Positions 497-58,326 of a stretch of 64,000 nucleotides of DNA are shown here, piece after piece (within the stretch, counting starts at the first letter, position 1; each line of letters starts with the position of its first letter). Source of the DNA: a virus. Lineage: Duplodnaviria > Heunggongvirae > Uroviricota > Caudoviricetes. Under the pieces are notes generated by a model that was not told the origin of the DNA, ran no database searches, and saw nothing but the letters and a program-made list of their open reading frames with translations. The stretch lies in the IMG/VR virus record IMGVR_UViG_3300028840_006732. One strand, written 5' to 3'. A program made the translations under genes and the position numbers.

Positions 497-516
497 TCTC
501 AAAACCGCTTTTGAGA
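497..516. repeat. palindromic motif TCTCAAAACCGCTTTTGAGA (copy 1), 15 bp upstream of the GTG start at 532
   Basis: Exact 8-bp inverted arms (TCTCAAAA/TTTTGAGA) around a CCGC centre. The same core recurs at 18840, 30751 and 56412. Confidence 0.7.
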
Positions 517-531
517 ACTCGGAGGCAACCC

Positions 532-1035
532 GTGAAACGACGCGACTTCCTCACGCAAGGCGTGACCTGTGCTGCGGCTCTCGGGGCCGTGGCTTTCACT
601 CCTCCTTTACTTGCCGGCCCGAAGAAGAAGCGGCCCAAGCCTAAGAGCGTCCAGGAGGCGGCAGCCCGTGATGCCTTCCGTCTTAGCCGCGACGAGGCGG
701 AGCAGACGATCGCGAAGATGGAAAAGGTCTTTGACGAGCACGGCATCCCGATTCGGCCCCCCAAACCTTTCGGCATGCAGCGCGAGTGGGAGTGCATCAC
801 CACGCCCACCTTCGTCATCTCCAACGTCGAAGACCTGCACGACTGCGTCCGCACCGGCATCGGCGATCTGCTGGCCGAGGTGAAGCGGCAGTTGGACAAC
901 GGCCGGATGCTGACCGGGATCACCATGCCCACGGTCGTGTCGAGTCCTTTCACCACCAAAAGGGGACTTCGCTACTTCATTGCCGACAAGCTCCAGGTCC
1001 ACGTCTACATCCACGCCACGTACGACCAGTCTTAG
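532..1035 (+). CDS. secreted hypothetical protein with twin-arginine (Tat) signal (VKRRDFLTQGVTCAAALGA)
   Basis: GTG start 6 nt after GGAGG (521-525). RRDFL plus AxA signal motif. High GC3. Confidence 0.55.
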   Translation: MKRRDFLTQGVTCAAALGAVAFTPPLLAGPKKKRPKPKSVQEAAARDAFRLSRDEAEQTIAKMEKVFDEHGIPIRPPKPFGMQREWECITTPTFVISNVEDLHDCVRTGIGDLLAEVKRQLDNGRMLTGITMPTVVSSPFTTKRGLRYFIADKLQVHVYIHATYDQS

Positions 1036-1102
1036 CAAGCTGCCGTTGATCTAACAACCCGCCCCGGGGACAATGGGTTGAGTTCAGCAAAGGAGTGCTA
1101 CC

Positions 1103-1348
1103 ATGAAGGCAAGATGGATCGCGGCCGTGTTCGGCCTCGTGCTCCTGGCAGTCGGGTTCTTCCTGTCTTCGGTGGGCGATCCGGTCGAGGAGCAGCCTTG
1201 CTGCCCTTTGCCCGACGCGGCCGATGAGCCGGGAGGCATACCGCAACTCCAACCAGTGAAGGAGGAAGAAGACCTACCACCACCGTCTGCCCCGGTCCAG
1301 CTCGGAGGCCCGGAGATGGCAGCCGAAGACACCCCAAGCACTCCGTAA
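1103..1348 (+). CDS. small secreted/membrane protein with N-terminal signal peptide and an acidic Pro-rich tail
   Basis: AAGGAG RBS at about 1090. Hydrophobic N-terminus (IAAVFGLVLLAVGFFL). Confidence 0.5.
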   Translation: MKARWIAAVFGLVLLAVGFFLSSVGDPVEEQPCCPLPDAADEPGGIPQLQPVKEEEDLPPPSAPVQLGGPEMAAEDTPSTP

Positions 1349-1678
1349 ACCACCGAGGCGAGACAGTGGGTCGTCGGCGCCAGGTGGGTTTTTCGGGAGC
1401 CCAACCACACCGGCGATCGTCACGGTTGACGACGTTCGGGACGTTGATCGTGGGCCGTGCCCGGAAGAAATCCTGGCTGACACGGTCCCTATGGTTGGTT
1501 GTTGGCGACGGGCTTACGGGATTTCTGTCTCCGGGGCTCCTTCGTCCCTCCGATCGCGGAACCAGGCTCCTCTACCGACTAGGTGGTGGAGGTCGGCAAG
1601 GGCCGACGAGGGCTGCAATGCCCTGGTGCAACCAATCACTCGCCTTTTGTTACCTTTCCAACTTCAAGGAGTAGTACC

Positions 1679-2053
1679 ATGAAAAAGTATGCCATTCTGT
1701 TCCTCGCGTTCGTCGCCATCTTGGCCTTCGCCGCCGTCTCGCACTCGCAGTGTGTGGGAGGCGCCTGCCCGGTGGGCGGCCCCGCGGTCGTTACCTCGGG
1801 TGGCGGCGGCTACCACGGCTGCCTGTTCATCCGGCGTGCCCCGGTGAGGCGAGCGGTCGCCCGCGTGATCGAACGCCGGCCGGTGAGGCGAGCAGTCGCC
1901 CGCGTGGTTGAACGTCGCCCGGTGAGGAGCGCAGTCGCCCGCGTGATCGAACGTCGCCCGGTGAGGAGCGCAGTCGCTCGCGTACTCGAACGCCGGCCGG
2001 TGAGACGGGCGCTTGCGCGTCCCTTCCGCGGCCGGTGCTTCCGTTGTCGCTAG
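1679..2053 (+). CDS. secreted repeat protein with signal peptide and 5 tandem 13-aa repeats (RRPVRRAVARVIE)
   Basis: AAGGAG RBS 7 nt upstream of the ATG. Signal peptide MKKYAILFLAFVAILAFAAVSHS. 39-bp DNA tandem repeats. Confidence 0.6.
   Translation: MKKYAILFLAFVAILAFAAVSHSQCVGGACPVGGPAVVTSGGGGYHGCLFIRRAPVRRAVARVIERRPVRRAVARVVERRPVRSAVARVIERRPVRSAVARVLERRPVRRALARPFRGRCFRCR
1826..2022 (+). repeat. 5 tandem copies of an approximately 39-bp coding repeat inside CDS 1679..2053
   Basis: Repeated unit cggtgaggcgagcggtcgcccgcgtgatcgaacgccggc with minor variants, read directly from the sequence. Confidence 0.7.
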
Positions 2054-2080
2054 TCAACCTTGCTTCTCGGAGGCAGCCGT

Positions 2081-2926
2081 ATGAGACCAGAACCCAAGTT
2101 CTTCGAGGTCAGCCAGCTTCGGCAGCCCGATGCCTCGCTGGAGCCGACGCTGGCTGAGATCGACTGTCGGATGCCCTCGGGGCATCCCTACAAGGACAGC
2201 CGCCACGTCACCTGGGCCCACGAGACCACGCACGGTCTCAACGGCCGCCTCCGCAACCAGCACGTGCAGCTTATCGGCATCAAACAGGGTTTCACTACCC
2301 GGGGTATCGACACTCTGGGCTTGCCGCCGGGCGTCGAGTTCGACTACCGCCTGCCGATTCCCGGCCCGGTGATCAACGAGCGGATCAAGCTGGGCCACAT
2401 CAACGCCTGCTACTGCCTGGCTGGCCGGGGCTGGCGTCACGAGGAGCCCAGTTTCAAGCTCAACGACATCGCCCAGGCGGTGCCCCAGGAGCTGCGCGGG
2501 ATGAGCTACCAGCTCTACCTGGTTCAGCAGCAGCAGTATTGGAACAACGAGCCGCTCTACGTCTTTGACGAGTGGAGCGCGTATCTCAACGGCCTGTCCA
2601 CGGCCCTGGACCACGACGACGGTGGCGACGGCCAGTTCAGCGATCTCTTGCAGGCCATCGAGTTCATGGGCTACAGTTACGTCCTGGCGGAGGTGGCCGA
2701 AGACCGAAGCCAGATTGACAACAACGTGCTCGATCTGATCTGCTTCCAGACAATGCGGACGTTCGAGCTGTTCGAGAAAGCCAAGGGAACGCGGCTCCGT
2801 GAGAGCCGCTGTGAGGAACACATCAAGAAGGTCGTCGCCCATGCTACGGAGCTTGCCGAGAAGTACATGGGGCTGTTTTTCGTCAACGAGATCCTCAAGC
2901 AGCAGCCTTTCTGGGGTCTCTTTTAG
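2081..2926 (+). CDS. hypothetical protein
   Basis: GGAGG RBS at 2069-2074. High GC3. No recognisable domain. Confidence 0.55.
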   Translation: MRPEPKFFEVSQLRQPDASLEPTLAEIDCRMPSGHPYKDSRHVTWAHETTHGLNGRLRNQHVQLIGIKQGFTTRGIDTLGLPPGVEFDYRLPIPGPVINERIKLGHINACYCLAGRGWRHEEPSFKLNDIAQAVPQELRGMSYQLYLVQQQQYWNNEPLYVFDEWSAYLNGLSTALDHDDGGDGQFSDLLQAIEFMGYSYVLAEVAEDRSQIDNNVLDLICFQTMRTFELFEKAKGTRLRESRCEEHIKKVVAHATELAEKYMGLFFVNEILKQQPFWGLF

Positions 2927-2950
2927 CTCATTCACTCTGAGAGGGTTATC

Positions 2951-3502
2951 ATGGTCGCCGCCTGGCTCGTCCCGATCATAATCATCCTGATGGCGGCTGT
3001 TGCCGTCGTCGCCTACCAGCAGGGCCGTGCCCGCCGAAGCGAGGAGTTCGGTAAGGCCGTGGCCCGGCAGGCCGAGGATCACGAGAAGCGGTACCAAGAG
3101 CTGGAGATCCGCTTCAGCGAAGCCCGGCAGGCACACGCCGAGGACTTGGAGCACGAGCGGAAAACGGTGGAAGAGAAGCAGCGCATGGTTGAGGAGCTGC
3201 AACAAAAGGTCCTCGGCCTGGCGCAGGAGCTGGATCGCTCTGCCGAATCAGTCAAGCAGTCCCAGACGATGCTCGATCAACTGCGTGAGGACAACGACCA
3301 GTTGCGAGCCCAGGTCGGCCAGATTGAGCGCCGCATCAAGGCCGGAATCGCCGTGCTGCTGGACCGGGACGGCGTCTACGACGTGGACGTGGAAGATCCT
3401 CCCGACCTACAAGACGTGTTCGGTCCGGGGGACCTGGTGCTCGACGATGAGGGCGAACCCCATCCCGTGCTCCCGGACGGCAGCGTCGACGTGTCCGGTT
3501 AG
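2951..3502 (+). CDS. membrane-anchored coiled-coil protein (N-terminal TM helix, then charged heptad-like region)
   Basis: TM segment AAWLVPIIIILMAAVAVVAY. Long E/R/Q-rich helical region. Confidence 0.55.
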   Translation: MVAAWLVPIIIILMAAVAVVAYQQGRARRSEEFGKAVARQAEDHEKRYQELEIRFSEARQAHAEDLEHERKTVEEKQRMVEELQQKVLGLAQELDRSAESVKQSQTMLDQLREDNDQLRAQVGQIERRIKAGIAVLLDRDGVYDVDVEDPPDLQDVFGPGDLVLDDEGEPHPVLPDGSVDVSG

Positions 3503-3510
3503 TTTCAGCG

Positions 3511-3561
3511 GTGTTGTATAACAGATTTGTTATTTCACGATTCACCCGTTGGGTGAAATAA
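3511..3561. promoter_or_regulatory. AT-rich intergenic region with nested palindrome TTATTTCAC-n14-GTGAAATAA (inner TCACCC-GTT-GGGTGA). Candidate operator/promoter or terminator hairpin.
   Basis: The only strongly AT-rich stretch in the neighbourhood. Inverted repeats seen directly. Lies between a stop at 3502 and the next RBS. Confidence 0.4.
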
Positions 3562-3581
3562 CGAAGGAGGAAAAGGTGGGT

Positions 3582-4013
3582 ATGGCATCCGAGGTTACCG
3601 GTTCGCAGGCCCCGTTCGGGGCGCCCAAGGAAACTGCCGAGGTGACCGACCACAAGACGCGGTTCCTCGCTACCATCGAGACGATTGTCGAGGGGGCCAA
3701 GAAGCTCCGCGAGTTCTGCCCCCAGGAAGAGGAGATGTTCTTCAGCACCTCTATTCAAGGGGTCCGCCTGACCTGCTCGCAGAGCTGCCTGGAGATGGCA
3801 CACAAGATCTGGGCGGAGACGGCGCCCAACCCTTGGGGACCTCGGAGCATGCTCGGCCTCGGCCAGTGTCCTCCGGGTGCCGTGGCTGCGGGCGGCATCA
3901 CCCGCGAGATGCTAGAACAGATGAAGAAGAGGCAGGCCGGTCTGCGGGAGACTGCCACGGCCGGCCCGGTTCCCGAAGCGGAAGGAGGCAAGGAGGACGA
4001 TGGATCGGCATGA
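3582..4013 (+). CDS. hypothetical protein
   Basis: AAGGAGG RBS at 3564-3570. Alternative TTG/GTG starts at 3549/3576. Confidence 0.5.
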   Translation: MASEVTGSQAPFGAPKETAEVTDHKTRFLATIETIVEGAKKLREFCPQEEEMFFSTSIQGVRLTCSQSCLEMAHKIWAETAPNPWGPRSMLGLGQCPPGAVAAGGITREMLEQMKKRQAGLRETATAGPVPEAEGGKEDDGSA

Positions 4014-4551
4014 CAACCCTCGTATCGTGGAGGTAAGGACCTTCAAGGACTTCCGCGGCCAGCTCACCGAGGCCTTCCACGAGGAGCGAGACTTGGGGAT
4101 CGGTGAGATCAAGCAGACCCTTTGCTCCATGTCCAAGAGCAACGTCGTCCGCGGCCTCCACTACCAGTGGCCCAACCCGATGGGCAAGCTGGTGATGTGC
4201 GTCTCCGGCCAGATCATCGACGTCGTCCTCGACATCCGCCGGGGCAGCAACACCTTCGGACAATCTTCGGCCTGGGCGTTGGGCCCGTATCAGCGGGAGG
4301 CGTTGTGGGTGCCGCAAGGCTTCGCCCACGGCTTCATGGCCCTCACCAACAACGCGGTCGTGCTCTACTTCTGCGACCAAGTCTTCGACCCGCAGTGCGA
4401 TCGGGCGATCAACGCTTTTGATCCCTCTCTCAGCATTGCCTGGCCGCCGGCAACCGGATCGGCCGAGGCCAAACACATTCAGAGCGACAAGGACGCGGAC
4501 GCTCCCATGCTCAAGGATGTACCCGAACGCCATCTTCCCGGACTGGTTTGA
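4000..4551 (+). CDS. rmlC: dTDP-4-dehydrorhamnose 3,5-epimerase-like cupin (RmlC family)
   Basis: Motifs RGLHYQ, KLVMCVSGQIIDVVLDIRRGSNTFGQ and WVPQGFAHGF match the RmlC fold signature. Confidence 0.8.
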   Translation: MDRHDNPRIVEVRTFKDFRGQLTEAFHEERDLGIGEIKQTLCSMSKSNVVRGLHYQWPNPMGKLVMCVSGQIIDVVLDIRRGSNTFGQSSAWALGPYQREALWVPQGFAHGFMALTNNAVVLYFCDQVFDPQCDRAINAFDPSLSIAWPPATGSAEAKHIQSDKDADAPMLKDVPERHLPGLV

Positions 4552-4568
4552 ACTCAGGAGACGATGAC

Positions 4569-5198: not shown

Positions 5199-5227
5199 CC
5201 GTTTCCCGGCCCCGGTAAGGAAGCCAA

Positions 5228-7169: not shown

Positions 7170-7170
7170 C

Positions 7171-18839: not shown

Positions 18840-18859
18840 CTTCAAAAGCGGTTTTGAGA
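18840..18859. repeat. palindromic motif copy 2 (reverse orientation), CTTCAAAAGCGGTTTTGAGA, abutting the ATG start at 18859
   Basis: Reverse complement shares the 17-mer CTCAAAACCGCTTTTGA with copies 1, 3 and 4. Confidence 0.7.
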
Positions 18860-19968
18860 TGAACACCCGAACTCCTCGACTCTTGCTCACCGGTATCGGT
18901 GGGTTTATCGGCCACCACGTGGCCCAGTGGATTCTCGATCGAACGGATTGGATCGTCGTGGGGGTCGACTCCTGGCATCCTCTCCACAAGGGAGACCGCA
19001 CGCGGATCAGTCCCGAGCTGCAAGCCTACGAGGCGAAGGGTCGCCTGAAGCTGCACAAGGCTGATATGACGGTGCCGTTCTCCGACGTGTGGGGCAACCT
19101 GCTCTACGAAGTTGTGGAGGAGCGTGCCCTGGTCGATCAGTTCGATTACGTCCTCAACCTGGCCAGCGACTCCCACGTGACCCGTTCGATCACCGACCCG
19201 GCTCGATGTTGGCTGAACAACACGCAGCTCATCCTCAACATGCTGGAGTTGTTCAGGGGGCCGAACTACAGCTTGCCGAACATGCTGCCGTTCAAGTTCC
19301 TCCACATCTCCACCGACGAGGTCTACGGCGATGCCGGCTGGGACGGTCCCGGGCATCCCGAGTGGGCCACGATCATGCCCAGCAACCCCTACTCGGCCTC
19401 CAAGGCGGCCCAGGAAGCGTTGTGCATCGCCTACTGGCGGACCTACGACATGCCGATCATGATCACCAACACCATGAACGTGATCGGTGAGCGCCAGGAC
19501 CCCGAGAAGTTCCTGCCCAAGGTGATCCAGAAGATCCTCCACGGCGAGACGGTAGAGATCCACGGCGACTCGCCGGAACGGATTGCCAAGCGGGTCTGGT
19601 TGGACGCCAAGAACATGGCCGACGCCCTGCGGTTCATCCTGGAGGAGGTCGATCCCCCGATGTACCGGCAGGGCGAGGGAGCTTCGTGTCCCGGCCGCTT
19701 CAACATCGTGGGGGAGACGGAGCTGAACGTCCTCGACCTGGCTGGCAAGGTGGCCGATCAGATGGGCAAGCCTCTCTATACCAGGCATGTGAGGGGGGAC
19801 CAGGTCCGTCCTGGTTACGATCGCCGCTATGCCCTGGACGGCTCCAAGCTGGCCAGTCTCGGCTGGACGCCCCCGTTCACCTTCGAGCAGACCCTCTCTC
19901 GGGTCATCGAGTGGACTCTCCAGCATCCCGAGTGGACGGTGCAGCGGAAGAAGCTGGCCGGCGCTTGA
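18859..19968 (+). CDS. NAD-dependent sugar epimerase/dehydratase, dTDP-glucose 4,6-dehydratase-like (RmlB-like SDR)
   Basis: GIGGFIGHH Rossmann motif. STDEVYGD. YSASKAAQE carries the YxxxK catalytic dyad. Confidence 0.85.
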   Translation: MNTRTPRLLLTGIGGFIGHHVAQWILDRTDWIVVGVDSWHPLHKGDRTRISPELQAYEAKGRLKLHKADMTVPFSDVWGNLLYEVVEERALVDQFDYVLNLASDSHVTRSITDPARCWLNNTQLILNMLELFRGPNYSLPNMLPFKFLHISTDEVYGDAGWDGPGHPEWATIMPSNPYSASKAAQEALCIAYWRTYDMPIMITNTMNVIGERQDPEKFLPKVIQKILHGETVEIHGDSPERIAKRVWLDAKNMADALRFILEEVDPPMYRQGEGASCPGRFNIVGETELNVLDLAGKVADQMGKPLYTRHVRGDQVRPGYDRRYALDGSKLASLGWTPPFTFEQTLSRVIEWTLQHPEWTVQRKKLAGA

Positions 19969-20191: not shown

Positions 20192-20266
20192 GCCGGCGTA
20201 GCTCAGTGACAGAGCGTCTCAGCCTACGGGCGGAGAAGGTTGGGGGTTCGATTCCCTCCGCCGGCC
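20192..20266 (+). tRNA. tRNA-like element, 75 nt, with non-canonical anticodon arm and D-loop. Possibly a degenerate or atypical tRNA.
   Basis: Acceptor stem GCCGGCG/CGCCGGC, 7 bp. D-arm GCTC-AGTGACA-GAGC. T-arm GGGGG-TTCGATT-CCCTC. The anticodon region folds as a 7-bp stem (one A-G mismatch) with a 6-nt loop, not 5 bp + 7 nt. The D-loop lacks GG. Confidence 0.45.
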
Positions 20267-20328
20267 CCTATTCGTGCAATGGTGGTATCGGGGAGAGCCG
20301 GTCACTTTCCCGCTTCCACTCGGACGGT

Positions 20329-29677: not shown

Positions 29678-31159
29678 ATGAACGAGAAAGTCGCCGATTT
29701 GTTGCTCCCGAAGGGCCTGACTCTGGCGGAGCTGGGGGGAGAGTTTGCCGGGCTTACCAAGCTGGCGGCCACCCTAACCGAGGCCAGGCAGGCGACTGAC
29801 ACCAATCCCTCTGAGGCCCAAGCCGAGGCCGGCAACTACCGCAAGGGGAAGTATTCCTGGCAGGGGCTCACCATCGTCATCGAGAACCCCAAGGGCTCCA
29901 TCCGATCCGGCGACGGCTGGGAGATCGAGATGCAGCACGACTACGGGTACTTCTCCCGTAGCGAGGGCAAGGACGGCGACCAGGTGGACGTCTTTCTCGG
30001 CCCCGATCGCCACAGTGAGCTGGTCTTCGTCGTCAACCAGGTCGACCCCGGCAGCGGCAAGTTCGACGAGCACAAGGTGGTCCTGGGGACAACTACCGAG
30101 GCCCAGGCTCGCAAGGTCTACCTGGCCAACTACGAGCGTGGCTGGAAGGGCCTGGGGAGCATCTTCCCGCTAACCGTGCCCCAGCTCAAGTGGTGGCTGG
30201 AGTACGGCAACACCAAAAAGGCCATCGAGGACGGCGCCTTCGCCAAGGCGGCGGAAGACACGGTCCAGGCCTACAAGCTCTTCCGCACCCTACCGACGCG
30301 GCCCGGGGAGCTGTTCCCGCTGTTCATCGACAAGACGAACCCGGTGCCCCGGGAGGAGTGGGTCGAGGCGGAGAACATCCCCACCGAGGGCTTTGCCCCG
30401 AGGCCCGGCTGGCACGCGGGAGCGCTGCCGTCCGCTCCGCATCTGCGGTCGAAGCGGGATCGGATTCAGCCCGGCCGGGTATGGGCCGAGGTCGAGCTGC
30501 CCGACGATGTCGACTGGCAAGCAGTCGCCGATGCGAGCCCGACCGGCGATGTCCGCGACCAGGTGCCGGAGGGTGGGCACTACCGGAAGAAGGCCCCGAG
30601 GATGCAGGGCGGTGAGTGGCTTATCGGCGGCGGCATGAAGATCCGCCAGGTCCTCTCCGACGACGAGGTCAGTGAAGTGCTGCGGCGGGCGGGGGAGGAC
30701 GACGCGGCGGAGAAGGAGCGGCAGGCGGCAGAGACGCCGGACGAGGAACTCCTCAAAACCGCTTTTGAGGTTCTCCAGAAGCTCGCGGCCGACGACGAAC
30801 ACATTCCCACCGTGGCCGTCGACCTGGACGGCACGATTGCGGTGAAAGAGGAGCCTTTCGATCCCAAGTCGATCGGCCCTCCTCGCCCCGGCGCCAAGAA
30901 GTGGCTGACGAAGTTCAAGAGCATCGGTGCCCGGGTCATCGTCTTCACCGTCCGCGGCGACACGGGGATGGTGAAGAAGTGGCTCAAGGAGAACGAGATC
31001 CCGTATGACTTCGTCAACCACAACCCCGACCAACCGGACGATGCTTCCGACAAGGTGTTGGCCGACGTCTACTGGGACGATCGCGGCGTGAACGCCGCCG
31101 GTCGCCTGGCGGATTCGGCTCCGACCGTGGTCGAAGAGTTGGAGGCAGCGGCGGCGTGA
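29678..31159 (+). CDS. multidomain protein: N-terminal inorganic-pyrophosphatase-like domain plus C-terminal HAD-superfamily hydrolase-like domain
   Basis: IVIENPKGS...DYGYFSRSEGKDGDQVDVFLGP...FDEHKVVLG parallels the family I PPase core (VVIEIP...NYGYI...DGDPVDVLV...KLVAVP). C-terminal VAVDLDGTIA...VFTVRGD...DVYWDDRG carries HAD motifs I-IV. Also contains palindromic motif copy 3 in-frame. Confidence 0.65.
   Translation: MNEKVADLLLPKGLTLAELGGEFAGLTKLAATLTEARQATDTNPSEAQAEAGNYRKGKYSWQGLTIVIENPKGSIRSGDGWEIEMQHDYGYFSRSEGKDGDQVDVFLGPDRHSELVFVVNQVDPGSGKFDEHKVVLGTTTEAQARKVYLANYERGWKGLGSIFPLTVPQLKWWLEYGNTKKAIEDGAFAKAAEDTVQAYKLFRTLPTRPGELFPLFIDKTNPVPREEWVEAENIPTEGFAPRPGWHAGALPSAPHLRSKRDRIQPGRVWAEVELPDDVDWQAVADASPTGDVRDQVPEGGHYRKKAPRMQGGEWLIGGGMKIRQVLSDDEVSEVLRRAGEDDAAEKERQAAETPDEELLKTAFEVLQKLAADDEHIPTVAVDLDGTIAVKEEPFDPKSIGPPRPGAKKWLTKFKSIGARVIVFTVRGDTGMVKKWLKENEIPYDFVNHNPDQPDDASDKVLADVYWDDRGVNAAGRLADSAPTVVEELEAAAA
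30751..30770. repeat. palindromic motif copy 3, CCTCAAAACCGCTTTTGAGG, inside CDS 29678..31159 (encodes LKTAFE)
   Basis: Exact 18-mer shared with copy 4. Perfect 8-bp arms. Confidence 0.7.
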
Positions 31160-31700: not shown

Positions 31701-32332
31701 CCATTGAAGGCGCGTTCAGTTGGCTGTCGGAGCTGCTTCGTTACCTGGCCAAGTGGTTTCCTCATCCGATCAAGGTCACCCCTATCGAGCGCGTCGTGAA
31801 GCTGAGGACGACGTCGTTCTTCATGTTCTGGCGGAAAGAGTGGTGGAGTCGGTTCTACTGGCTGCGGGGTCCCGTCCCCAAACCGCAGGCGTTCAAGGCG
31901 GGTTTCTACTGGTACGTCCCGCAGCTCACGGACATTCACTCCTGGATGGTCGTGCCCTACCCGCTGGACATCGTCGAGAAGCCGGCCATGACCAAGGACG
32001 GCCAGGCCGTCACCGTCGACGCCACCGTGGTAGGCTACGTCCGGGCTCCGTTGCGGGCCTCGTTGAAGTGCCACGACCTGGACGAGATGGTCCAGACGCA
32101 GGCCATCCCCGAGCTGCGCTACATGGTCAATCAGAACACGCTGGCGGAGCTGGGAGACTATCTTGTCGAAGCTACTGTTGACGAAGACGTGACCAACGGT
32201 GTACGAGATCGTATGCAGAAGTACGGCTTCTACGTGGAAGAAGTGTTGGTGAGCGTCTGTCCCACAACGGCGATGCACCACGTAGGGCTCTCGATTCAAG
32301 CCAGTGCGACGGCAGGAAAGACCGACGAATGA
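31697..32332 (+). CDS. possible SPFH/band-7-domain protein (weak)
   Basis: AMTKDGQAVTVDATVVGYVRAP and IPELRYMVNQNTLAELG resemble stomatin/prohibitin-type motifs. ATGA overlap with the upstream gene. Confidence 0.45.
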   Translation: MTIEGAFSWLSELLRYLAKWFPHPIKVTPIERVVKLRTTSFFMFWRKEWWSRFYWLRGPVPKPQAFKAGFYWYVPQLTDIHSWMVVPYPLDIVEKPAMTKDGQAVTVDATVVGYVRAPLRASLKCHDLDEMVQTQAIPELRYMVNQNTLAELGDYLVEATVDEDVTNGVRDRMQKYGFYVEEVLVSVCPTTAMHHVGLSIQASATAGKTDE

Positions 32333-32928
32333 TCAAGTACGTGGACTTGGGCGCCAAGAACGCAGGTGCCTTGGCGGCGGCGATAAAACGGGGACCGAGC
32401 CGCGGGCTTCCTCGGGCCAAGCCTGAAGAGTGTATGGCGGTGGAGCGTGTGGCGGCGTATCGTCGGCCGGTCGAGAAGCGGGGCTTCCAGTTTGTCAGCG
32501 CCGACGTGCAGATGGGTTTCTCTTGGGAGCGGGCCGACGTCTATCTGGCCTGGAACTTCCTTGAGCATCTCAACAGCATCGAGGCCGCCCAGAAGGTGCT
32601 GACGAAGATGTTCGCTTTCTCGCGGCAGTGCGTGTGGCTCTTACTGCCGAGCTTCGAGGAAGCTGCCTTGAAGCGGCTGGCAAAGTTCGGCTACACCTTC
32701 AAGTGGGTCGACTGGAAATGCCACCGGGCGCACGTGCAGTTGAAGCACGTGGACGAGGTAGCAAAACATTTTCAGACTCGGATCGAGGCGAAGAAAGTCA
32801 TCAAACGCTGGGCCGTTCGCAACTGTGCAAACCTCAAACCGTTGAAGGGCCGCAAGCAGATCCCAGCCGATCTGGAACCGCCGTTGCCCGGCGCCTTGGA
32901 AGTGATGTACTATCTGAAGGAGAGCTAG
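32329..32928 (+). CDS. hypothetical protein
   Basis: ATGA overlap. High GC3. Confidence 0.5.
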   Translation: MIKYVDLGAKNAGALAAAIKRGPSRGLPRAKPEECMAVERVAAYRRPVEKRGFQFVSADVQMGFSWERADVYLAWNFLEHLNSIEAAQKVLTKMFAFSRQCVWLLLPSFEEAALKRLAKFGYTFKWVDWKCHRAHVQLKHVDEVAKHFQTRIEAKKVIKRWAVRNCANLKPLKGRKQIPADLEPPLPGALEVMYYLKES

Positions 32929-46000: not shown

Positions 46001-47494
46001 AACCCGCCGATGCCTCGGGTGCCGATGGCCTACCATAAATTCGTCGAGCAACTCCGGGCCTCGGGGATCAACGTCGTCCGCGAGGGCACGCAGACGAACA
46101 TCATGGCGCTGACCGACAAGGACGTCGACGAGCTGGCCGGGGATCGCAACCTGATGAAGAACGACGGCGTCGATTGGGGCCGGGGCCTGCGTCCCATCCG
46201 GGGCGGTCTGTTCGACAAGAAGCTCACCGGCGGCCACTCCGGTCGGCGATGGTCTGCGATCCGCCTGACCGAGCCGATGCCCAATCCGGTGATGGAGGAG
46301 CCGATCCGTCGCGTGCTCGGGCTGACCAAGGCCAAGTTCGAGGCCGTCATCTCCGGGGACCATGAGCTGCCCAAGTTCGGCACCGGCGCCCAGGCCATCG
46401 GTAAAGCCTTGCAAGCCCTCAACTTGGACAAAGAGTTGTCCATGGCAAGGGCCCAAGTCTCGCAAGGCAGCAAGACGGAGAGGGACCAAGCTGTCCGCAA
46501 GCTCGACTATCTCAAGCGGGCCAAGAAGCTCGGTATCCATCCTGGCGACTGGGTGTTGAAGCGGGCCCCGGTGCTGCCGCCGGCGTTCCGCCCGGTCTCG
46601 ATGATGGACAACGACCTGCCGATGATCTCCGACGCCAACTACCTCTACAAGGAGCTGATGGAGGCCAACGATAACCTGGCGGCCATGAAGAAGGAGCTGG
46701 GGGACGAGGGTGCTGGCCCGGAGCGGCTGGCCGTCTACCACGCCTTCAAGGCAGTCACCGGCCTGGGAGATCCGATCAGCCAGAAGAGCCGCGAGAAGAA
46801 CGTGCGGGGAATCCTCAAAAGCGTTTTTGGAAGCTCTCCCAAGTTCGGCACCGTGCAGCGTAAGCTGATCTCCACGACAGTGGACAACGTCGGCCGGTCC
46901 GTGATCACCCCCAACCCCGATTTCGACATGGACACGGTGGGCCTGCCCGAGGATGCGGCCTTCGATATTTACGGAAAATTCATCGCCAGGCGTATGCGTC
47001 GACAGGGGGTTCCTCTGACCCGGGCCCTCCAGCAGATCAAGGATCGTACCCCCCTGGCCCGGGAAACGCTCGTCGAGGAAATGGACGAGCGGCCGGTGTT
47101 CATCAACCGCGCCCCCGTGCTGCACAAGTTTGGCATCCTCGCCTTCCGCCCCAAGCTGGTGAAGGGGAGCACGATGCAAGTGAGCCCCCTGATTGTCAAG
47201 GGGTTCAACGCCGACTTCGACGGCGACCAGATGAACTTCCACGTCCCCACGGACGCGGCGGCCGTCAAGGAGGCCTACGAGCGGATGCTGCCTTCGGCCA
47301 ACCTGCTCAGCCCGGCCGATTTCAAGTCCCCGGTGCATGCTCCCGGGCAGGAGTTCGTCGGCGGTCTCTACCACGCCACCAAGTCACGAAGCAAACAATC
47401 GGTGCGGAAGTTTCACACTTTGGCCGACGCCAGGGCGGCCTACGCAGCCGGCAAGCTGTCCCTGGACGACCAGGTACAGATTTTGGATCAGTAG
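43052..47494 (+). CDS. multisubunit RNA polymerase: beta-like subunit fused to the N-terminal (active-site) part of beta-prime
   Basis: Beta motifs: [26 protein letters not shown] parallels E. coli [41 protein letters not shown]...[15 protein letters not shown] parallels GDKLAGRHGNKGV...LNPLGVPSRMN. Beta-prime motifs: [13 protein letters not shown] and [15 protein letters not shown], the catalytic Asp triad at 47207-47236. The ORF ends shortly after region D. Confidence 0.8.
   Translation: [1480 protein letters not shown]
46813..46830. repeat. degenerate copy of the palindromic motif (CCTCAAAAGCGTTTTTGG) inside the RNAP gene, same reading frame as copies 3 and 4 (encodes LKSVFG)
   Basis: 13/18 identity to the consensus in reverse orientation. 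Confidence 0.35.
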
Positions 47495-53600: not shown

Positions 53601-54708
53601 TCGCATCCCCGGGGCCAGCAAGCTGTGGGGCGCCGCCAAGGGTGCCAAGCCGGGCGTAGGGCCGCTGGGCCATCTGGCGATCGCCCTGGACGCGATTGGT
53701 ACCGGCAGGAATGTTGTTCAGCATGGTCTTACCGGCCACGGTAGCGCTGGCGAGCAAGTCAACCAGCGTCGGCAGTCGCAGATCGAAGGAGCCGCCGCAG
53801 GGAATCCCCTGGACGCTGTGGGTTTCGCTGGAGAGTTTTTCAGCCCCTTCAGTACGGGGGCTGCGGGCGCAGAGACTGTCGCGGGTACCACCGAGGCGAC
53901 GATCCGCGGTGCCCAGGAAGCCGGCCGGAGTTACGGTTTGGGTTCGCAGCAACAGGAACTCTATCAGCGCCGCTCGGCCGAGGGCCTCGATCCCAGCAAC
54001 CCGATCAACCAGCGGGACTACCAGTTGCACAACGACAAGTCGATCCTCGATCCGCTGTCGCGGGTGTGGAGCCGGGTCAAGGAACGCCACGGTTACGGGA
54101 AAGACGGCACGCTCTGGGATAAGGCCAAAGGGATGGTCCTTCCGTACGCCGGGATCGCCCAGGGCATGATGGACATCCAGGACGTCATCAAGGAGCCGGC
54201 CGAGGCTGGAATGGAAGCCCTCCAGGAGTATAGCTCGCTGAAGGGCAAGGCCCAGCCGATCTTGCAGGAGCGGGCCGAGACCGCTCAGAGCCAGAAAGCA
54301 GCCCTCCCCGAGCAGATCCGCGAGTTGGAGAAGATCGAGGCTGCCGGCGGTCTGACGCCCGGGCAGAAGCAGTCTTTGGAAAAGCTCCGCCAGCGACAGG
54401 AGATGTCCGGCTACGAGCTGTCCCACGAGGGTATGGGGGCTGGTGAACGGATTATGGAGGATGTTCACCTGAAGCGTCCGGGTGTCCCAGGTGTGGAGCC
54501 GATCCACCTCCCCGGAGCCGGCTGGGGCCTCAAACGCTTTGCCACGCCGGCGGAAATCTGGCGTGGTGAGGTCTCCTTCAACCCCTTCTTCAAGCGAGGT
54601 CTCGACGAGATGGGCGGGGCGCCGCTGGTCGGCGGATTTCCCATCCTCTTCGAGGAGGAGCCTTTTGCTATTGGCGAGGCCGCGCAAAATGGGCTAGAAT
54701 CGGCCTAG
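50668..54708 (+). CDS. multisubunit RNA polymerase beta-prime C-terminal part (bridge helix / trigger-loop regions) with about 750-aa low-complexity C-terminal extension
   Basis: GARHGVIALKSATRDAGFLSKQLNQVAHRLVVVDED parallels the beta-prime bridge helix [20 protein letters not shown]. GGAGG 5 nt upstream. The C-terminal half is G/A/P/Q-rich with no recognisable domain. Confidence 0.75.
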   Translation: MRTATLGQHLVNETLPDDMRDYDRVLDKKGLSSLLREVAEKHPDKYREISHKLLEIGSRASQESGGMAFGVKHLGKARAAVKTRQKLTNALAKILDRDDLDDRRREELIVRAIGREIEPQQEAILKESLEEGNPLALQVLSGSRGNKMNLASLRGSDMLYVDHRGRPLPIPILRSYSEGLSPEEYWAGTYGARHGVIALKSATRDAGFLSKQLNQVAHRLVVVDEDEEEAPKVLRGMPVDTNDMDNEGALLAHDAGPYKRNTHLTPKILKHLQRMGHDRILVRSPIIGGSPEGGVYSRDVGVRERGNLPGLGEMVGLTAAQALSEPLTQAQISAKHGGGVAGEDKAVSGFERINQLVQTPRVMKGGAAHAQVDGTVGRIEKAPAGGNYVTIDGEQHYVGQGFDLKVKKGDTVEAGDVLSEGLPNPGQIVRHKGVGEGRRYFTWAFRQALQDAGLKAHRRNTELLSRGLINHVRLTEEYEDGVPGDVIPYSTLEHRYTPREDYEDVEPRRAVGQYLERPVLHYTIGTKVRPSMLREFERFGVNTLSVHKNPPPFEPEMIRGMYSMQHDPDWLVRHYGSGLKKSLLSAAQRGGTSEERGSSFVPALARSTNFGRTPNSVVRKPGPGFEPPRPSLASEQTEQRKPKPVRKSWFGGRFKLSSDAELEKIASLPAPYKKPTSTPPGTSGGVQGAAERSAQGVGPSPSAQMGTTVPSAGTGGNPYAAGAAAAGGAGGVEQVGSMPAARPQWGSYASPGMMGSPLAVPLIQQVNKMLPGVGGVMTMGTLMSPQSMRVLTSGQRYSPLSGTGGWQGAGGSGIPPAGYQIDQQQPTPEAAPEVQQPAAPAADPQAAMDQRIEQGVDNAFDTILGTKPGTGVFSDEAPTNLRDALPESVRNYTPDWAEDMFLRFMPNPANPSRELGQAAMIRQGLAPIGRGLSTLWRAPVKGTGYLPWLRNTRAGEWLRNMKFMSPKGGPGMLTRLMNRIPGASKLWGAAKGAKPGVGPLGHLAIALDAIGTGRNVVQHGLTGHGSAGEQVNQRRQSQIEGAAAGNPLDAVGFAGEFFSPFSTGAAGAETVAGTTEATIRGAQEAGRSYGLGSQQQELYQRRSAEGLDPSNPINQRDYQLHNDKSILDPLSRVWSRVKERHGYGKDGTLWDKAKGMVLPYAGIAQGMMDIQDVIKEPAEAGMEALQEYSSLKGKAQPILQERAETAQSQKAALPEQIRELEKIEAAGGLTPGQKQSLEKLRQRQEMSGYELSHEGMGAGERIMEDVHLKRPGVPGVEPIHLPGAGWGLKRFATPAEIWRGEVSFNPFFKRGLDEMGGAPLVGGFPILFEEEPFAIGEAAQNGLESA

Positions 54709-54729
54709 AGTCTACCTGAGGAGTAGAGC

Positions 54730-55647
54730 ATGGACGTGATCGCAGATCTGGCCAGGAAGGCCGCCGCTAACTCTTCGTCGATGAGCAAAGAGGCCGGTCT
54801 CGGGCTCGGGAAGATGCTCGGTGGATTGGCCGATGACGCGGGACGTTGGGGCGGGAAACAGCTCTGGCGTTCCGTCTCTCGTCCTCTCAGCACCGGAGGT
54901 TTCAGGCGGAAGTTTTCGCCAGGTCGTGCTTTGGGCACGGCGGCCGTGGCTGCCCCGGCTGCGATGGCGGCCAAGGACTTTCTTCCTGGGACCGGGGGTT
55001 CCTGGAAGGGTCAAGGAAACATCGGCTGGCATCGGCAGCGTGCCACCGGCCAGGCCGGCATGGGCAACATGGCCCAGGCCTGGGCCGCGCGGCCCGGTAA
55101 ATCGCTGTATTCCCTGTTCTCCTCGCAGCAGGGACCGACTTCGGTCCAGGGAGGCTGGGAGTCGGCTGGCGAGAAGACTATCGACCCGGAGACAGGCAAG
55201 GAGATCCAGCAGTTTCAGCGCAGCAAGATCTACTCGCCGGCCGATCAGTACAAGCTGGAACAGTATCAAGCGCTGAAGAAAAGACACGATGCCGCGAGAG
55301 CTGCACAAGAAGCCAAAGTCACGGCCGCACAGAAGGCCTTGGAGTCGGGCAACTACGGCGGAGGTTGGTTCGGCGGCTCGGTGGCCGAACGCCAGGCCGC
55401 CCATAAAACGAAGCTCGACCAGTTGCAGCAGCAGCTCGCGTCTGGTGAATACGGCGGAGGCTGGGGCAGCAACAACGCTGCCGCGATGCAGGCGGAGTTG
55501 GATGCCCAGCGTGAATACCTGCGGAGCATCGGCTTGCTCCGCTCGCAGGCGCCGCAACCGATGCAGCGGGCCCAGTTCCCCGGCATCGCCACACGACCTT
55601 TGGGAGATCCGTCGTTTCGGCGGTACTCGTTGGCATCCCTGCGGTGA
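54730..55647 (+). CDS. Gly/Trp/Gln-rich hypothetical protein
   Basis: GAGGAG 5 nt upstream. Confidence 0.55.
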   Translation: MDVIADLARKAAANSSSMSKEAGLGLGKMLGGLADDAGRWGGKQLWRSVSRPLSTGGFRRKFSPGRALGTAAVAAPAAMAAKDFLPGTGGSWKGQGNIGWHRQRATGQAGMGNMAQAWAARPGKSLYSLFSSQQGPTSVQGGWESAGEKTIDPETGKEIQQFQRSKIYSPADQYKLEQYQALKKRHDAARAAQEAKVTAAQKALESGNYGGGWFGGSVAERQAAHKTKLDQLQQQLASGEYGGGWGSNNAAAMQAELDAQREYLRSIGLLRSQAPQPMQRAQFPGIATRPLGDPSFRRYSLASLR

Positions 55648-55674
55648 CCTTCGATTCCATGGACGGAGCGAAGC

Positions 55675-58326
55675 ATGCTTACACAACTGATCAAGTTCGA
55701 TAAGATCTCCACCGACCTCGGAACGTACTGGCGGTCGTCGGAGCCCTACGCGGTTCTGCGGCACCAGCTTCGCGAGTGGACGCGGGGACCGTTCTTCAAG
55801 ACCGCCAACCTGGGCGGCTCCACCGAGGAAGGCTTCGAGCAGGCGTTCAGCTCGCTGGCGTTCGCCTACCTCAAGGACAAGGCGCCCCGGCTGATCGACT
55901 TCATGGTCGGCTTCCAGTTGGTCGACCGCAACGAGGACTCCACCAAGGCGATGGGGATCTTCGGCTTCCGCGTGGGCAACCAGTGGCTCTACGCCCCGGT
56001 GTTCTTCCTCAACGGCGACCTCAAAGGTCACGAGCTGTTGTACATCAAGAACCAGGACACCTTCGTGCCCATGAAGGAGAACTGGGTCAACGACCTGATG
56101 GCCAAGAAGCCCCACGTCCTGGGCGAGCCCTCGGATCAGGATACCTTCCAGCTCGGCGGGCTCATGCCCGACATGCAAGGCATGTCCTCCATCCCCAGCT
56201 TCGGCAAGCACGGCTTCGACGAGTGGAGCCTGGGCATGCTGCCGCTGGTGGCCGCCGCCAAGAATCGGGCTGCTCGTGCCCTCTTCCGGACCGCCGAACC
56301 GGGCACGAAACTGGCCATGGACGCGATCGGTGCCGCCCCGCAGAAGGCGGCCCTGGCCGAGGTCGCCAACCGGCTGGACCTCAACAACGTCCTCCCCAAA
56401 CACTTCGGACTCCTCAAAACCGCTTTTGAGATCTCGCGGGCGTATCCCCTCATCAAGAAGGGGTTCGATCGCTTCTACGGCACCGACTGTTTCAGCCGGT
56501 GGGCTCGCGAGCTGCGTAGCGGCACGCTCGCCGACATGACGAATATCATGCCCAAGACCGCCGCCGACCGTCCTGCCATGGATGGATCAGTACGGGGCCA
56601 GGGACGGCCTGGCGGCGGTCGTCGCATGCAGACGGATTCGTGCCGCTTGATCCCTGAAGAGGACAAGCCGGATCACCCCGTCAAGTCTGGCGCCCTGACG
56701 ATCCACGTCTACGAAGAGGTGGCCATCGCTCGTAACGTCCCCGAGCTGGACGACGACGATCGCGAGAAGCTGCTGAAGGACACCGTCCTCATCAAGGACA
56801 AGCGGGACCCCCACGGTTCCGAGGCCTCCAAGGCCTACAACACCCAGGTCGAGCAGAAGCTGCTCAACCCCCACGAGACGGGGCTCTACGAGGTCCTGGA
56901 GAAGCCGGGTGACTTCAGCCGCATGCTGGTTATCTCCAACCCGCAGTCCAACGAGGGACAGCGAGACTTCTGCACGGTCGTCCGGATCGGCGATTCCGGC
57001 TCGAAGGCCTGGCTAAACGCTCACCGCTCCAACCTGTGGGCCGACAAGGTCGAACTCCGCGAGGATTTCGACAAGTGGTTCGAGGATCTGGGCGACCGGG
57101 ACAGCCTGAAGAAGGGAGGCACGTACCTGGCCATTGGCGCAAGCGGCAACGGGACGGTTCCCTTCGTCGTCCGGGAGGTCTACGGAGATGGCGCGTACAA
57201 GGTCGATTTCAAGTCGCACTGTGACTACGCTTACGAACGGGACCGTGACGCCCCGACGTTTGGAAGAGTTGAGGAATCGGGTTCGGGGCACTACGTCAGC
57301 CCCTACGGAGCCAAGCTCTACGTCGACGCCGAAGAGAATCGTGGCACGAAGCTCCGCTCGATCCAGGGCGAGCTGCGGGTGCCTGGCGACTTCAAGATTC
57401 TCACGCTGAAGAATCCTCCCAAGCCCAAGAAGCCGAAGGACGAGTGCAACTTGATGCCTTGCGAGGCCGAGCCGGATAGTGAATCGGGCTCCGAGGTCAA
57501 GCCGATTCACCCGGGCAAGTTGGACGACATCCAGATGCTCTTCACCGAGAAGACCGCCGCGCTGAAGATCTGGGACGACGGCTCCGAGGTGCAGATCGGC
57601 TCGTGCCTGGGCAATCATCGTCTCACGAAGCGGGCGGCCCTGATCCATTTGGTTCGCGACCACGGCCTCACCGAGCAGGCTTCCCGGGAGATGCTCAAGC
57701 AGGCCGCGGCAAAGGGTGGCCGGCGGTTTCGCATGGTCTATGCGCCTGGCTTCGGGGACAAGCAGGACATGGTCAAGGAGGCCCTCGGCCCCGGACCGAA
57801 CGCCCCCGCGATGATGCCCCCGGAAATGGGCATCGAGACGATGGGCGGACGGCACGCCGTGCGCTCGATCATGCCGCAGGAAGAGCACATGCCGGTCGAC
57901 GAGATGTCCGCCGGCATGACCGACCCGCAGGTCTGGGATAACTGGCAGAACTACCAGGCCGAGGACTTCCAGAACGTCATGGGCCAGGCCCAGCAGGCCG
58001 CGGCCTCGGGGCAGAAGGAGGTCTTCGACACCTCGGTCATCGGTGGCCTGCTGAAGAGCGTCCGGCAGGACAGCCTGGTCGATCGCTACCTGGGCGACCT
58101 GATGACGGCCCTGGACAAGCTCGGCCGCATCTTGTTCCTCTTCTACTGGCACCAGGAGGAGTTCGAGGACCGCTACGGCAAGGCCGACTTGCCGGAGCTG
58201 GAGGACTCGCTCCGCAATGCCTTCGAGGCCCTGGGCGACGTGGCCTTGTTCCTCAAGGAAAAGACGGTCGAGCCGATCGCCGGCGAGATGGGTGATCTCG
58301 ACTTGGACGAAACGGCCCGGAACTAA
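55675..58326 (+). CDS. large hypothetical protein (883 aa). Candidate virion/structural component; contains palindromic motif copy 4 in-frame.
   Basis: Long ORF with high GC3. No recognisable catalytic motif. Confidence 0.6.
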   Translation: MLTQLIKFDKISTDLGTYWRSSEPYAVLRHQLREWTRGPFFKTANLGGSTEEGFEQAFSSLAFAYLKDKAPRLIDFMVGFQLVDRNEDSTKAMGIFGFRVGNQWLYAPVFFLNGDLKGHELLYIKNQDTFVPMKENWVNDLMAKKPHVLGEPSDQDTFQLGGLMPDMQGMSSIPSFGKHGFDEWSLGMLPLVAAAKNRAARALFRTAEPGTKLAMDAIGAAPQKAALAEVANRLDLNNVLPKHFGLLKTAFEISRAYPLIKKGFDRFYGTDCFSRWARELRSGTLADMTNIMPKTAADRPAMDGSVRGQGRPGGGRRMQTDSCRLIPEEDKPDHPVKSGALTIHVYEEVAIARNVPELDDDDREKLLKDTVLIKDKRDPHGSEASKAYNTQVEQKLLNPHETGLYEVLEKPGDFSRMLVISNPQSNEGQRDFCTVVRIGDSGSKAWLNAHRSNLWADKVELREDFDKWFEDLGDRDSLKKGGTYLAIGASGNGTVPFVVREVYGDGAYKVDFKSHCDYAYERDRDAPTFGRVEESGSGHYVSPYGAKLYVDAEENRGTKLRSIQGELRVPGDFKILTLKNPPKPKKPKDECNLMPCEAEPDSESGSEVKPIHPGKLDDIQMLFTEKTAALKIWDDGSEVQIGSCLGNHRLTKRAALIHLVRDHGLTEQASREMLKQAAAKGGRRFRMVYAPGFGDKQDMVKEALGPGPNAPAMMPPEMGIETMGGRHAVRSIMPQEEHMPVDEMSAGMTDPQVWDNWQNYQAEDFQNVMGQAQQAAASGQKEVFDTSVIGGLLKSVRQDSLVDRYLGDLMTALDKLGRILFLFYWHQEEFEDRYGKADLPELEDSLRNAFEALGDVALFLKEKTVEPIAGEMGDLDLDETARN
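56412..56431. repeat. palindromic motif copy 4, CCTCAAAACCGCTTTTGAGA, inside CDS 55675..58326 (encodes LKTAFE)
   Basis: Exact 19/20 match to copies 1 and 3. Confidence 0.7.

Follow-up and report, generated by a model that had tools for sequence, protein, structure and literature searches.

A lineage-specific palindrome at gene starts and within genes of an uncultivated phage family, and its possible role in transcription

Why would a GC-rich phage genome carry the same short AT-rich palindrome both in front of genes and inside genes that are unrelated to each other? This question is raised by a 64,000-nucleotide stretch of DNA from a tailed phage of the Caudoviricetes (IMG/VR record IMGVR_UViG_3300028840_006732), hereafter the window, in which an earlier note, made from the sequence alone, described near-exact copies of a palindrome at four places and a degenerate fifth. 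A mismatch search on both strands confirmed all of them. The element is the 18-mer CTCAAAACCGCTTTTGAG, which is exact at 498, 30752 and 56413; the copy at 18841 has the opposite orientation and one outer mismatch, reading TTC where the others read CTC, and the degenerate copy at 46814-46831 has three mismatches. Exact matches to the 17-mer CTCAAAACCGCTTTTGA are found at 498-514, 18842-18858 (minus strand), 30752-30768 and 56413-56429. The arms of the 18-mer are 7 bp long, CTCAAAA and TTTTGAG, and surround a 4-bp centre that reads CCGC or GCGG; the arms of 8 bp given in the earlier note exist only at 497 and 30751. In the following, we show that this palindrome is under selection and is one version of a site that occurs across a phage family, and we argue that it may be a protein-binding site in duplex DNA that serves transcription.

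The palindrome occurs far above chance. Allowing up to three mismatches, the window contains 10 matches, i.e. five sites since a palindrome is scored on both strands, while 0.10 was expected from 100 dinucleotide-preserving shuffles of the window, none of which reached 10 matches. A search with the looser core CAAAASCGSTTTTG returned the five known places and no others. Moreover, alignment of the five places revealed no similarity outside the motif, and therefore the copies are not duplicated segments. A sixth copy, which is exact, lies 3.8 kb past the end of the window in a locus of the same phage that extends the sequence to 68.3 kb (L147:22169, corresponding to window coordinate ~67843). 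In total, the 68 kb contain six to seven copies, three of them intergenic and three to four coding, or about one per 10 kb. In the lineage of the window, no copy has the self-pairing CCGG or GCGC as its centre.

The coding copies indicate at which level the motif is maintained. The three coding copies in the window share the reading frame CTC-AAA-NNN-NNN-TTT-GAG, as had been noticed earlier; this is weak evidence by itself, because the third frame contains TGA and only two frames are open. The choice of codons is more informative. Given the codon usage of the window, the chance of spelling the peptide LKTAFE with the exact 18-mer is 2.8e-4 per site, and both LKTAFE peptides in the window are spelled in this way. 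The copy in the gene for an 883-residue protein lies on a peptide that is conserved in the family, L-[LM]-K-x-A-[FH]-[ED]; high-GC relatives encode this peptide with AAG, GCC and TTC, while the rare codons AAA, GCT and TTT occur there only in the window phage and in its closest relative (L148; 63% protein identity), which has a one-mismatch copy at the same codons. The 883-residue copy aligns to the relatives without a gap and differs from them by substitutions alone, so that insertion of a small mobile repeat of the REP or MITE type does not account for it. By contrast, the copy at 30752 does sit in an inserted segment, a 19-residue inter-domain linker that is absent from the homolog P0124, and insertion is possible for some copies. 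Rare codons on a conserved peptide together with the location in a linker argue for selection on DNA or RNA and not on protein, in support of what the earlier note had proposed. We conclude that the 18-mer of the window is real and under selection at the DNA level.

These data leave practically no room for an absence of function, in which the copies would reflect chance, convergence of proteins on peptides such as LKTAFE, the relic of a small mobile element or a recent duplication. The peptide LKTAFE is common, many single matches to the 18-mer are in unrelated genes, and one coding copy lies in an inserted linker; but the shuffle expectation of 0.1, the unrelated flanks, the improbable codons, the change by substitution without insertion or deletion in the 883-residue gene, the intergenic position of most copies and the persistence of the motif while its flanks diverge all contradict such an origin. 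For practical purposes, it is refuted by the enrichment, the codons and the intergenic bias.

The exact 18-mer was sought in collections of viruses, genomes and metagenomes, with genomes represented by one per species for 185,579 species. A second phage (IMGVR_UViG_3300017963_000209, identical to Ga0180437_10000256; 107 kb, 61% GC) contains seven exact copies, six of them intergenic in very short gaps between co-directional genes and one coding, and no variants with one to three mismatches were found in the 74.5 kb of it that we assembled. It encodes a DnaB-like helicase, a primase, a family A DNA polymerase and Mre11/Rad50-like proteins; no RNA polymerase was detected in the about 80 kb examined. 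The window and this phage share one protein, a methyltransferase-like protein with 26% identity, and no shared DNA-binding protein was found. The gene for the methyltransferase-like protein (window 32329-32928; L135 4205-4969) is located 1.1-1.6 kb downstream of a motif copy in both phages. A sulfotransferase-like gene seems, by eye, to be present in the second phage. Another possibility considered was that a related jumbo genome has the 107-kb contig as its other half; this is regarded as unlikely, as a search with the DNA polymerase of the contig returned that contig and one 48-kb relative. That search had only close relatives within reach, and none of the contigs of the family of the window were among the matches. 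The 48-kb relative (L382, 67% polymerase identity; IMGVR_UViG_3300017990_000023) has CTCAAAACCACTTTTGAG at the homologous gap, where the arms are intact, one base of the centre is changed (CCGC to CCAC) and the leader beyond is fully diverged.

The arms CTCAAAA/TTTTGAG are identical in five copies of the window phage and the seven copies of the second phage. Considering 13 copies from these two phages, a consistent geometry relative to genes emerges. Nine of the 13 are located in non-coding DNA, which makes up 7% of the sequence (P = 2e-8), and the intergenic copies lie 0-33 nt ahead of start codons. The positions given in the earlier note for the copies ahead of the genes starting at 532 and 18859 are borne out. 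All genes concerned are co-directional; on the coding strand the centre reads CCGC in six copies and GCGG in seven. Copies with GCGG on the coding strand are 0, 0, 0, 2 and 22 nt from the start codon, while those with CCGC are followed by a spacer of 11-33 nt with a ribosome-binding site. Orientation may track spacing because AGCGG, 7 nt before the ATG, can likely act as a weak ribosome-binding site, while ACCGC likely cannot. The four copies at 0-2 nt from the start all precede ATG, and several of the spaced ones precede GTG. Copy 1 is separated from GTG 532 by 16 nt that contain GGAGG; copy 2 abuts ATG 18859 with no separate ribosome-binding site, as in a leaderless arrangement; and the sixth copy stands at the end of a 130-nt gap after the capsid gene, past a GC-rich hairpin and 16 nt from an ATG, with AGGAG in between. 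At the equivalent place in the closest relative (L148 22223-22643), a 420-nt gap after the capsid gene is devoid of the motif.

While the core is symmetric, the flanks are polar with respect to the genes. Read in the direction of the gene, 12 of the 13 copies are followed by A (P = 4e-8) and 11 of 13 are preceded by C (P = 9e-5). No sigma-70-type promoters were detected near the three sites scanned, and a terminator scan reported none at the same sites. The motif itself does not resemble an intrinsic terminator, as the stem is AT-rich and the T run belongs to the stem. Moreover, it does not behave as a start-associated sequence because the ribosome-binding site lies outside of it and three to four copies are deep inside genes.

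How general is this arrangement in the family of the window phage? We read 68 of the ~236 kb of the window phage and 20-48 kb per relative. The 883-residue protein, used as a single-protein probe, found nothing, and an alignment-based probe was needed. The ribonucleotide reductase encoded in the window was abandoned as a probe for relatives since it retrieved mostly unrelated phages, only five of 80 loci belonging to the family. Among 80 relatives fetched around the capsid gene, none contained the 18-mer, even when two mismatches were allowed. An AT-tract palindrome of its own is present in each of six other sampled lineages (Table 1), in five of them in several copies; in the shuffle test, which covered the five lineages other than L152/L230, all were far above expectation. 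The positions are in part the same. In a gene for a 499-residue protein, a different palindrome is present at the same codons in each of five lineages, and one of these genes uses AAA and TTT at the site despite a third-position GC content of 95%. A distant member of the family with 45% GC (L003 5798-5815/L070 10467-10484; IMGVR_UViG_3300032397_000020) carries the exact 18-mer of the window once, at this conserved coding site (N-LKTAFE-ESMEKQA), with no other copy in the 15-19 kb fetched. In the 883-residue gene, the L301 lineage has its motif on the conserved peptide SNLDFN, 13 codons upstream of the LLKTAFE site of the window. After the capsid gene, several lineages have a full or degenerate copy right ahead of the ribosome-binding site of the next gene, and in two lineages a copy directly precedes the beta' gene. 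The intergenic copies of the other lineages are followed by a purine, mostly A, and then by a leader of 9-28 nt with a ribosome-binding site. In total, we conclude that the motif of the window is one version of a family-wide site of which each lineage has its own sequence; the sites keep their symmetry while the sequence changes, and their positions are partly conserved.

This geometry is explained best if the motif is itself a promoter, read by a holoenzyme of the phage polymerase with a sigma-like subunit and with the transcript starting at the A after the motif so that messages would be leaderless or have short leaders, a reading that we nevertheless regard as rather unlikely. In this it would be akin to the T7 group, the promoters of which are uniform within a genome, differ between lineages and in part lie inside genes. 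The phage encodes homologs of beta and beta', and the motif is uniform within a genome and divergent between lineages at conserved positions. In addition, an A follows it in nearly all copies, and the distance to the start codon is either 0-2 nt to an ATG or 9-33 nt with a ribosome-binding site. The copy that sits after a hairpin behind the capsid gene, the lack of a sigma-70-like promoter close by at the scanned sites and the easy melting of an AT-rich site in a GC-rich genome are also in line with a promoter. However, a polymerase needs no palindrome, yet the version of every lineage is palindromic, and the asymmetric centre faces either way, leaving the core without direction. Moreover, the density is too low for a sole class of promoters, the second phage has no RNA polymerase in the ~80 kb examined, and in one relative a terminator-like hairpin follows at once after a copy. 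In the merged contig of the L301 lineage, a low-GC relative, at ~46069 (L160 region), the motif is followed by a hairpin and a T run, and a start there would give an RNA of ~36 nt.

Alternatively, the symmetry could reflect a hairpin in single-stranded nucleic acid, either a stem-loop of the leader RNA with a role in stability, processing or translation, or an extruded DNA hairpin that the polymerase would recognize, in the style of the early promoters of phage N4. A 7-bp stem with a 4-nt loop can form, and the exact copies have predicted RNA folding energies between -5.4 and -7.9 kcal/mol (z-scores between -1.9 and -3.6); as the centre reads either CCGC or GCGG in all cases, a 4-nt loop is kept, L382 retains the arms while it changes a base of the loop, and one relative has the motif at the tip of a longer, perfect hairpin. 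The fold is weak, however: copy 2 reaches -3.8 kcal/mol and the degenerate copy -1.7 kcal/mol, the latter no better than shuffles. In addition, three related low-GC contigs keep imperfect copies with A.A, T.T and A.G oppositions in the middle of the arms, even as the flanks diverge; by our own count the mismatches in imperfect copies are ~5 of the sense-wobble type, three of the antisense type and nine non-pairing, i.e. without preference for changes compatible with G.U on the sense strand. All genes are on one strand, yet the loop is not the same in the two orientations; moreover, the centres of other lineages are fully palindromic, and Rfam gave no match at the motif. We therefore give the hairpin a slim chance. 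Altogether, base pairing of the motif seems unnecessary; since the two-fold symmetry is kept in every lineage even so, the likely reader is a two-fold symmetric one acting on duplex DNA, i.e. a protein dimer. A distance of 11 bp, or one helical turn, separates the centres of the half-sites.

Would such a reader be encoded by the host, with phages of the same host sharing the motif and relatives in other hosts differing? The seven exact copies in the unrelated 107-kb phage, which shares one weak homolog with the window, speak for a host factor, as does the bacterium Paenarthrobacter sp. Z7-10, the genome of which has a GC content similar to that of the window and contains the 18-mer four times, each as the tip of a longer hairpin. 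But no other genome among the 185,579 species has more than one exact copy, global regulators are usually stable over wide taxa while the motif changes between close lineages, and the 45% GC member of the family carries the same 18-mer at a conserved coding site. A host factor is thus very unlikely in our view.

The remaining occurrences of the exact 18-mer are of two kinds. The genomes and metagenomes gave ~135 single matches, most of which are chance occurrences within unrelated genes, e.g. homologs of the flagellar protein FliP. Similarly, L088/L128, taken up as a relative on account of polymerase homologs and one exact motif, turned out to be a bacterial rpoB-rpoC contig with the motif in a histidine kinase gene by chance. 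The second kind consists of tips of much longer palindromes in unrelated records (L016, L018 at 17-34 and 940-957, L028 at 3280-3297, L113 at 1187-1204 and L119 at 666-683). The four copies in Z7-10 have arms of ~16 bp with compensatory differences, and AATCTGTGGATAAC follows ~20 nt after each; the copy in one metagenome contig with 40% GC has near-perfect arms of 30 bp and that in one contig with 66% GC has shorter extended arms. These tips may be coincidental, may form a family similar to REP elements or terminators, or may hint at a protein that binds hairpins. As for the second phage, the identical 18-mer may result from transfer of a small regulator gene, from a common host factor, or from the use of the machinery of another phage.

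A loading site for a ParB- or KorB-like protein, or for another protein that structures the genome, would have no direct link to gene starts and could serve compaction, segregation or global silencing. Such a site fits copies every 5-18 kb, intergenic as well as coding and in either orientation, and the motif resembles parS, the Noc-binding site and the KorB operator in style. A protein encoded right after one copy in the second phage weakly matches HTH_ParB (E = 0.005) and DUF1016_N (6e-7), both below the curated thresholds. The Pfam scans of 62 + 42 window proteins contained no member of the ParB family, and neither the polar flanks nor the fixed position ahead of the start codon, which is kept even in a long gap, would be expected for an organizer of this kind. 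We consider it improbable.

We favor, with a probability of about 0.42, that a dimeric protein specific to the lineage recognizes the motif as duplex DNA and in this way controls phage transcription at the heads of transcription units. A dimeric sequence-specific protein, probably encoded by the phage and co-evolving with its site, would bind the 18-mer as duplex DNA at positions -18 to -1 relative to the conserved A; the message would begin at that A and run straight into an ATG or have a leader of 9-33 nt carrying the ribosome-binding site; a few further sites would occupy positionally conserved places within genes; and binding would toggle phage transcription on or off genome-wide, presumably by way of the phage multisubunit RNA polymerase. 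Binding by a dimer, an output in transcription and a start at the A after the motif are what we infer from the sequences. Transcription is suggested by the link to gene starts, the polar flanks, the site after the hairpin behind the capsid gene, the lack of sigma-70-like promoters and the phage-encoded polymerase. Among the roles listed in the earlier note, the data agree best with a site for a transcription factor or a promoter/operator, the case for an RNA hairpin is weakened, and a nuclease or packaging recognition site has no support of any kind.

Several observations weigh against transcriptional control by a dimeric protein. A symmetric operator does not predict C before and A after the motif, for which a transcription start is a better fit, and the centre is invariant in the 12 exact copies while the centres of dimer sites often vary. 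At ~1 site per 10 kb, the sites cannot be the sole control points of the genome; several lie deep within genes and far from starts, and one in a relative is directly followed by a terminator-like hairpin. The close, high-GC relatives L150 and L151 have no comparable repeat in the 21-32 kb examined. The occurrence of the 18-mer in an unrelated phage lineage would require that the binder was transferred horizontally or that a host factor is involved. The gene starts used here come from a simple rule on third-position GC and not from a trained gene finder. Finally, the only recognizable DNA-binding protein in the 68 kb is a GerE-type protein of 76 residues, which was discarded as the binder because it has almost no homologs and none in other family members or in the parts of the second phage that were fetched.

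A bolder version, which we think improbable, is that the palindromes form a fast-evolving symmetric promoter code, in which a dimeric factor would direct a virion-type multisubunit polymerase to the 18-bp site with a start at the next base, yielding messages that have a short leader or none, and the 107-kb phage would borrow the factor or the polymerase by gene transfer or during co-infection. If a promoter code is shared in this way, it would resemble virophages that copy the promoters of their giant-virus hosts.

The phage itself has no nucleotide match among deposited phages. The GC content of the window is 63%, and nearly all genes are on the plus strand according to third-position GC calls. 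The polymerase and the major capsid protein of 313 residues share ~30% identity with their counterparts in Salmonella phage Arash and in three Vibrio phages. A 236-kb contig encodes the 883-residue protein, for which 768 relatives were detected, many of them on contigs of 200-236 kb. The 236-kb contig with this protein, the phage-encoded polymerase and the likeness to Arash indicate that the window is part of an uncultivated jumbo phage of ~236 kb with a distant relationship to that phage. The window revealed no integrase, no repressor and nothing else that would suggest lysogeny. The virion of Arash contains beta, beta' and a sigma factor (PMC10585845). The genome of Arash was examined over its first 100 kb, where ordinary terminators and a promoter-like repeat, TGGTATAAGTAA, were found but no family of AT-tract palindromes.

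The positions of the motif copies and of genes connected with them are listed in Table 1. The beta' gene of L148 (3601-8886) encodes 1761 residues with matches to an intein/LAGLIDADG homing endonuclease. The Tat signal of the 167-residue protein is odd for a lytic jumbo phage, and the Pfam match for it is weak. Downstream of the gene for this protein, an open reading frame at 1583-2053 contains a tandem peptide, RRPVRRAVARVIE, at ~1856-1990, with a DNA period of 78 nt. A sugar-modification cluster spans 2000-24900 and includes several glycosyltransferases, a DegT-type aminotransferase, a dTDP-sugar 3,5-epimerase, a GDP-mannose dehydratase-like epimerase, a hexapeptide transferase, a sulfotransferase, methyltransferase genes and an HpcH-type aldolase. 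A tRNA gene at 20192-20268 (Rfam, 50.8 bits), to which ARAGORN assigned no anticodon, was the sole match of the window in Rfam 15.

Table 1. Copies of the palindrome and selected genes in the window, and the palindromes of other lineages of the family
Feature	Position	Strand	Remarks
Copy 1, exact	498..515	+	intergenic, coding-strand centre CCGC, 7 nt past stop codon 488-490; followed by AACTCGGAGGCAACCC and GTG at 532
Copy 2, one outer mismatch	18841..18858	-	plus strand reads TTCAAAAGCGGTTTTGAG; coding-strand centre GCGG; between TAA 18836-18838 and ATG 18859
Copy 3, exact	30752..30769	+	in pyrophosphatase/HAD fusion gene; encodes LKTAFE
Degenerate copy, three mismatches	46814..46831	-	plus strand reads CTCAAAAGCGTTTTTGGA; in RNA polymerase beta/beta' fusion gene; encodes LKSVFG
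Copy 5, exact	56413..56430	+	in conserved gene for 883-residue protein; peptide LLKTAFE
Protein of 167 residues, twin-arginine-like (Tat) signal (RRDFL)	532..1035	+	headed by copy 1; leader of 16 nt
Nucleotide-sugar epimerase/dehydratase	18859..19968	+	headed by copy 2
GerE/LuxR-type (sigma-70 region 4-like) helix-turn-helix protein, 76 residues	24882..25112	+	
Multisubunit RNA polymerase, fusion of beta and N-terminal beta', 1480 residues	43052..47494	+	Rpb2 domains 3 and 6; Rpb1 domains 1 and 2
C-terminal part of beta', 1346 residues	50668..54708	+	Rpb1 domain 5
Palindrome of lineage L152/L230			CAAAACCGGTTTTTG
Palindrome of lineage L157/L237			TAAAAAACGTTTTTTA
Palindrome of lineage L196/L202/L195/L200			CAAAGATATCTTTG
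Palindrome of lineage L242/L166			TCATAAGCACTTATGA; three exact copies
Palindrome of lineage L300/L301/L303			TAAAATCCRGATTTTA; about seven per 48 kb
Palindrome of lineage L156/L234			CAAAAAGTACTTTTTG; two copies only

What follows from these sites extends beyond the window. The phage family, with genomes of ~200-236 kb, is widespread in metagenomes and is without a cultured close member, and the palindromes mark probable heads of its transcription units. They illustrate that a regulatory code can shift in sequence between lineages while it keeps its symmetry and its places in the genome, and that coding sequences are bent by synonymous codon choice to hold a site. That an unrelated phage has the same 18-mer prompts a question that can be tested, namely whether phages exchange or exploit each other's regulatory specificity. 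Across complete genomes, co-variation between half-sites and protein residues could reveal the binder without culturing.

How does the motif compare with known repeated sites of phages and plasmids? A literature search for its sequence returned one unrelated eukaryotic paper only, and no palindromic promoters or operators for this phage group are described in the literature searched. Stoperators of Cluster A mycobacteriophages, which are the sites of the L5 repressor gp71, are 13-bp asymmetric sequences that are oriented with transcription in temperate phages with an immunity repressor. The motif resembles them as a short, near-identical site that is repeated in short gaps and within units, stoperators being subcluster-specific and bound by a phage protein with global control over transcription; it differs in that it is symmetric and occurs in both orientations. 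Among 104 scans of window proteins, none matched a repressor family, and the GerE-type protein was the sole helix-turn-helix protein. The start-associated sequences of Cluster K mycobacteriophages are asymmetric, contain the ribosome-binding site, are absent from the inside of genes and lie a few bases before the starts of a subset of genes, whereas the motif is palindromic, has no ribosome-binding site, can abut the ATG and is also found deep in genes.

Promoters of the T7 group, of the N4 virion polymerase and of AR9 and phiKZ are asymmetric and oriented, those of AR9 and phiKZ being short. The motif shares with phage promoters a length of ~18 bp, uniformity in each genome, lineage specificity, some intragenic copies and a phage-encoded polymerase; in orientation it stands apart, its core being unoriented and only its flanks polar (C before 11 of 13 and A after 12 of 13 copies). 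N4 promoters have a stem of 5-7 bp and a loop of 3 nt and are recognized by a single-subunit polymerase that reads one strand, while the motif has a 4-nt loop that varies, conserved copies with a broken stem and a multisubunit polymerase. KorB operators of RK2, parS sites of ParB and Noc sites are nearly invariant, partly intragenic palindromes of 13-16 bp with A/T outer parts and a GC core, which are dispersed over the replicon and in some cases remote from promoters. Like them, the motif is a palindrome repeated on a replicon with an asymmetric centre in both orientations; unlike them, it has polarity and a spacing to start codons. The half-site also resembles the recombination sites of the DNA invertases Hin and Gin (TCAAAAACC); we abandoned a recombination site of this type, since dispersed sites that recombine with each other would scramble the genome and the search for a serine recombinase gave none.

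The closest published analogue of the motif is the 17-bp repeat of Cluster O mycobacteriophages, 5'-TGTTCGGNNNCCGAACA, which is present in more than 30 copies, has two invariant inverted arms of 7 bp and is without an explained function (PMC4351075). This repeat has an asymmetric, unoriented centre, about one-third of its copies are coding, many others lie in short gaps at gene starts, and it is absent from the host (PMC4351075); the authors proposed a dimeric DNA-binding protein (PMC4351075). The two repeats have in common inverted arms of ~7 bp, many copies between and inside genes, and an unoriented centre. The motif differs in being AT-rich in a GC-rich genome, in its density (~1 per 10 kb as opposed to ~1 per 2 kb), in its invariant centre and in intergenic copies that are tied to start codons and have polar flanks. 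Moreover, and again unlike the Cluster O repeat, it belongs to a family that varies by lineage at partly kept positions, its phage has a polymerase of its own, and the 18-mer recurs in an unrelated phage lineage. Work on the co-variation of sites and proteins in the family described here could therefore also shed light on the palindromes of Cluster O.

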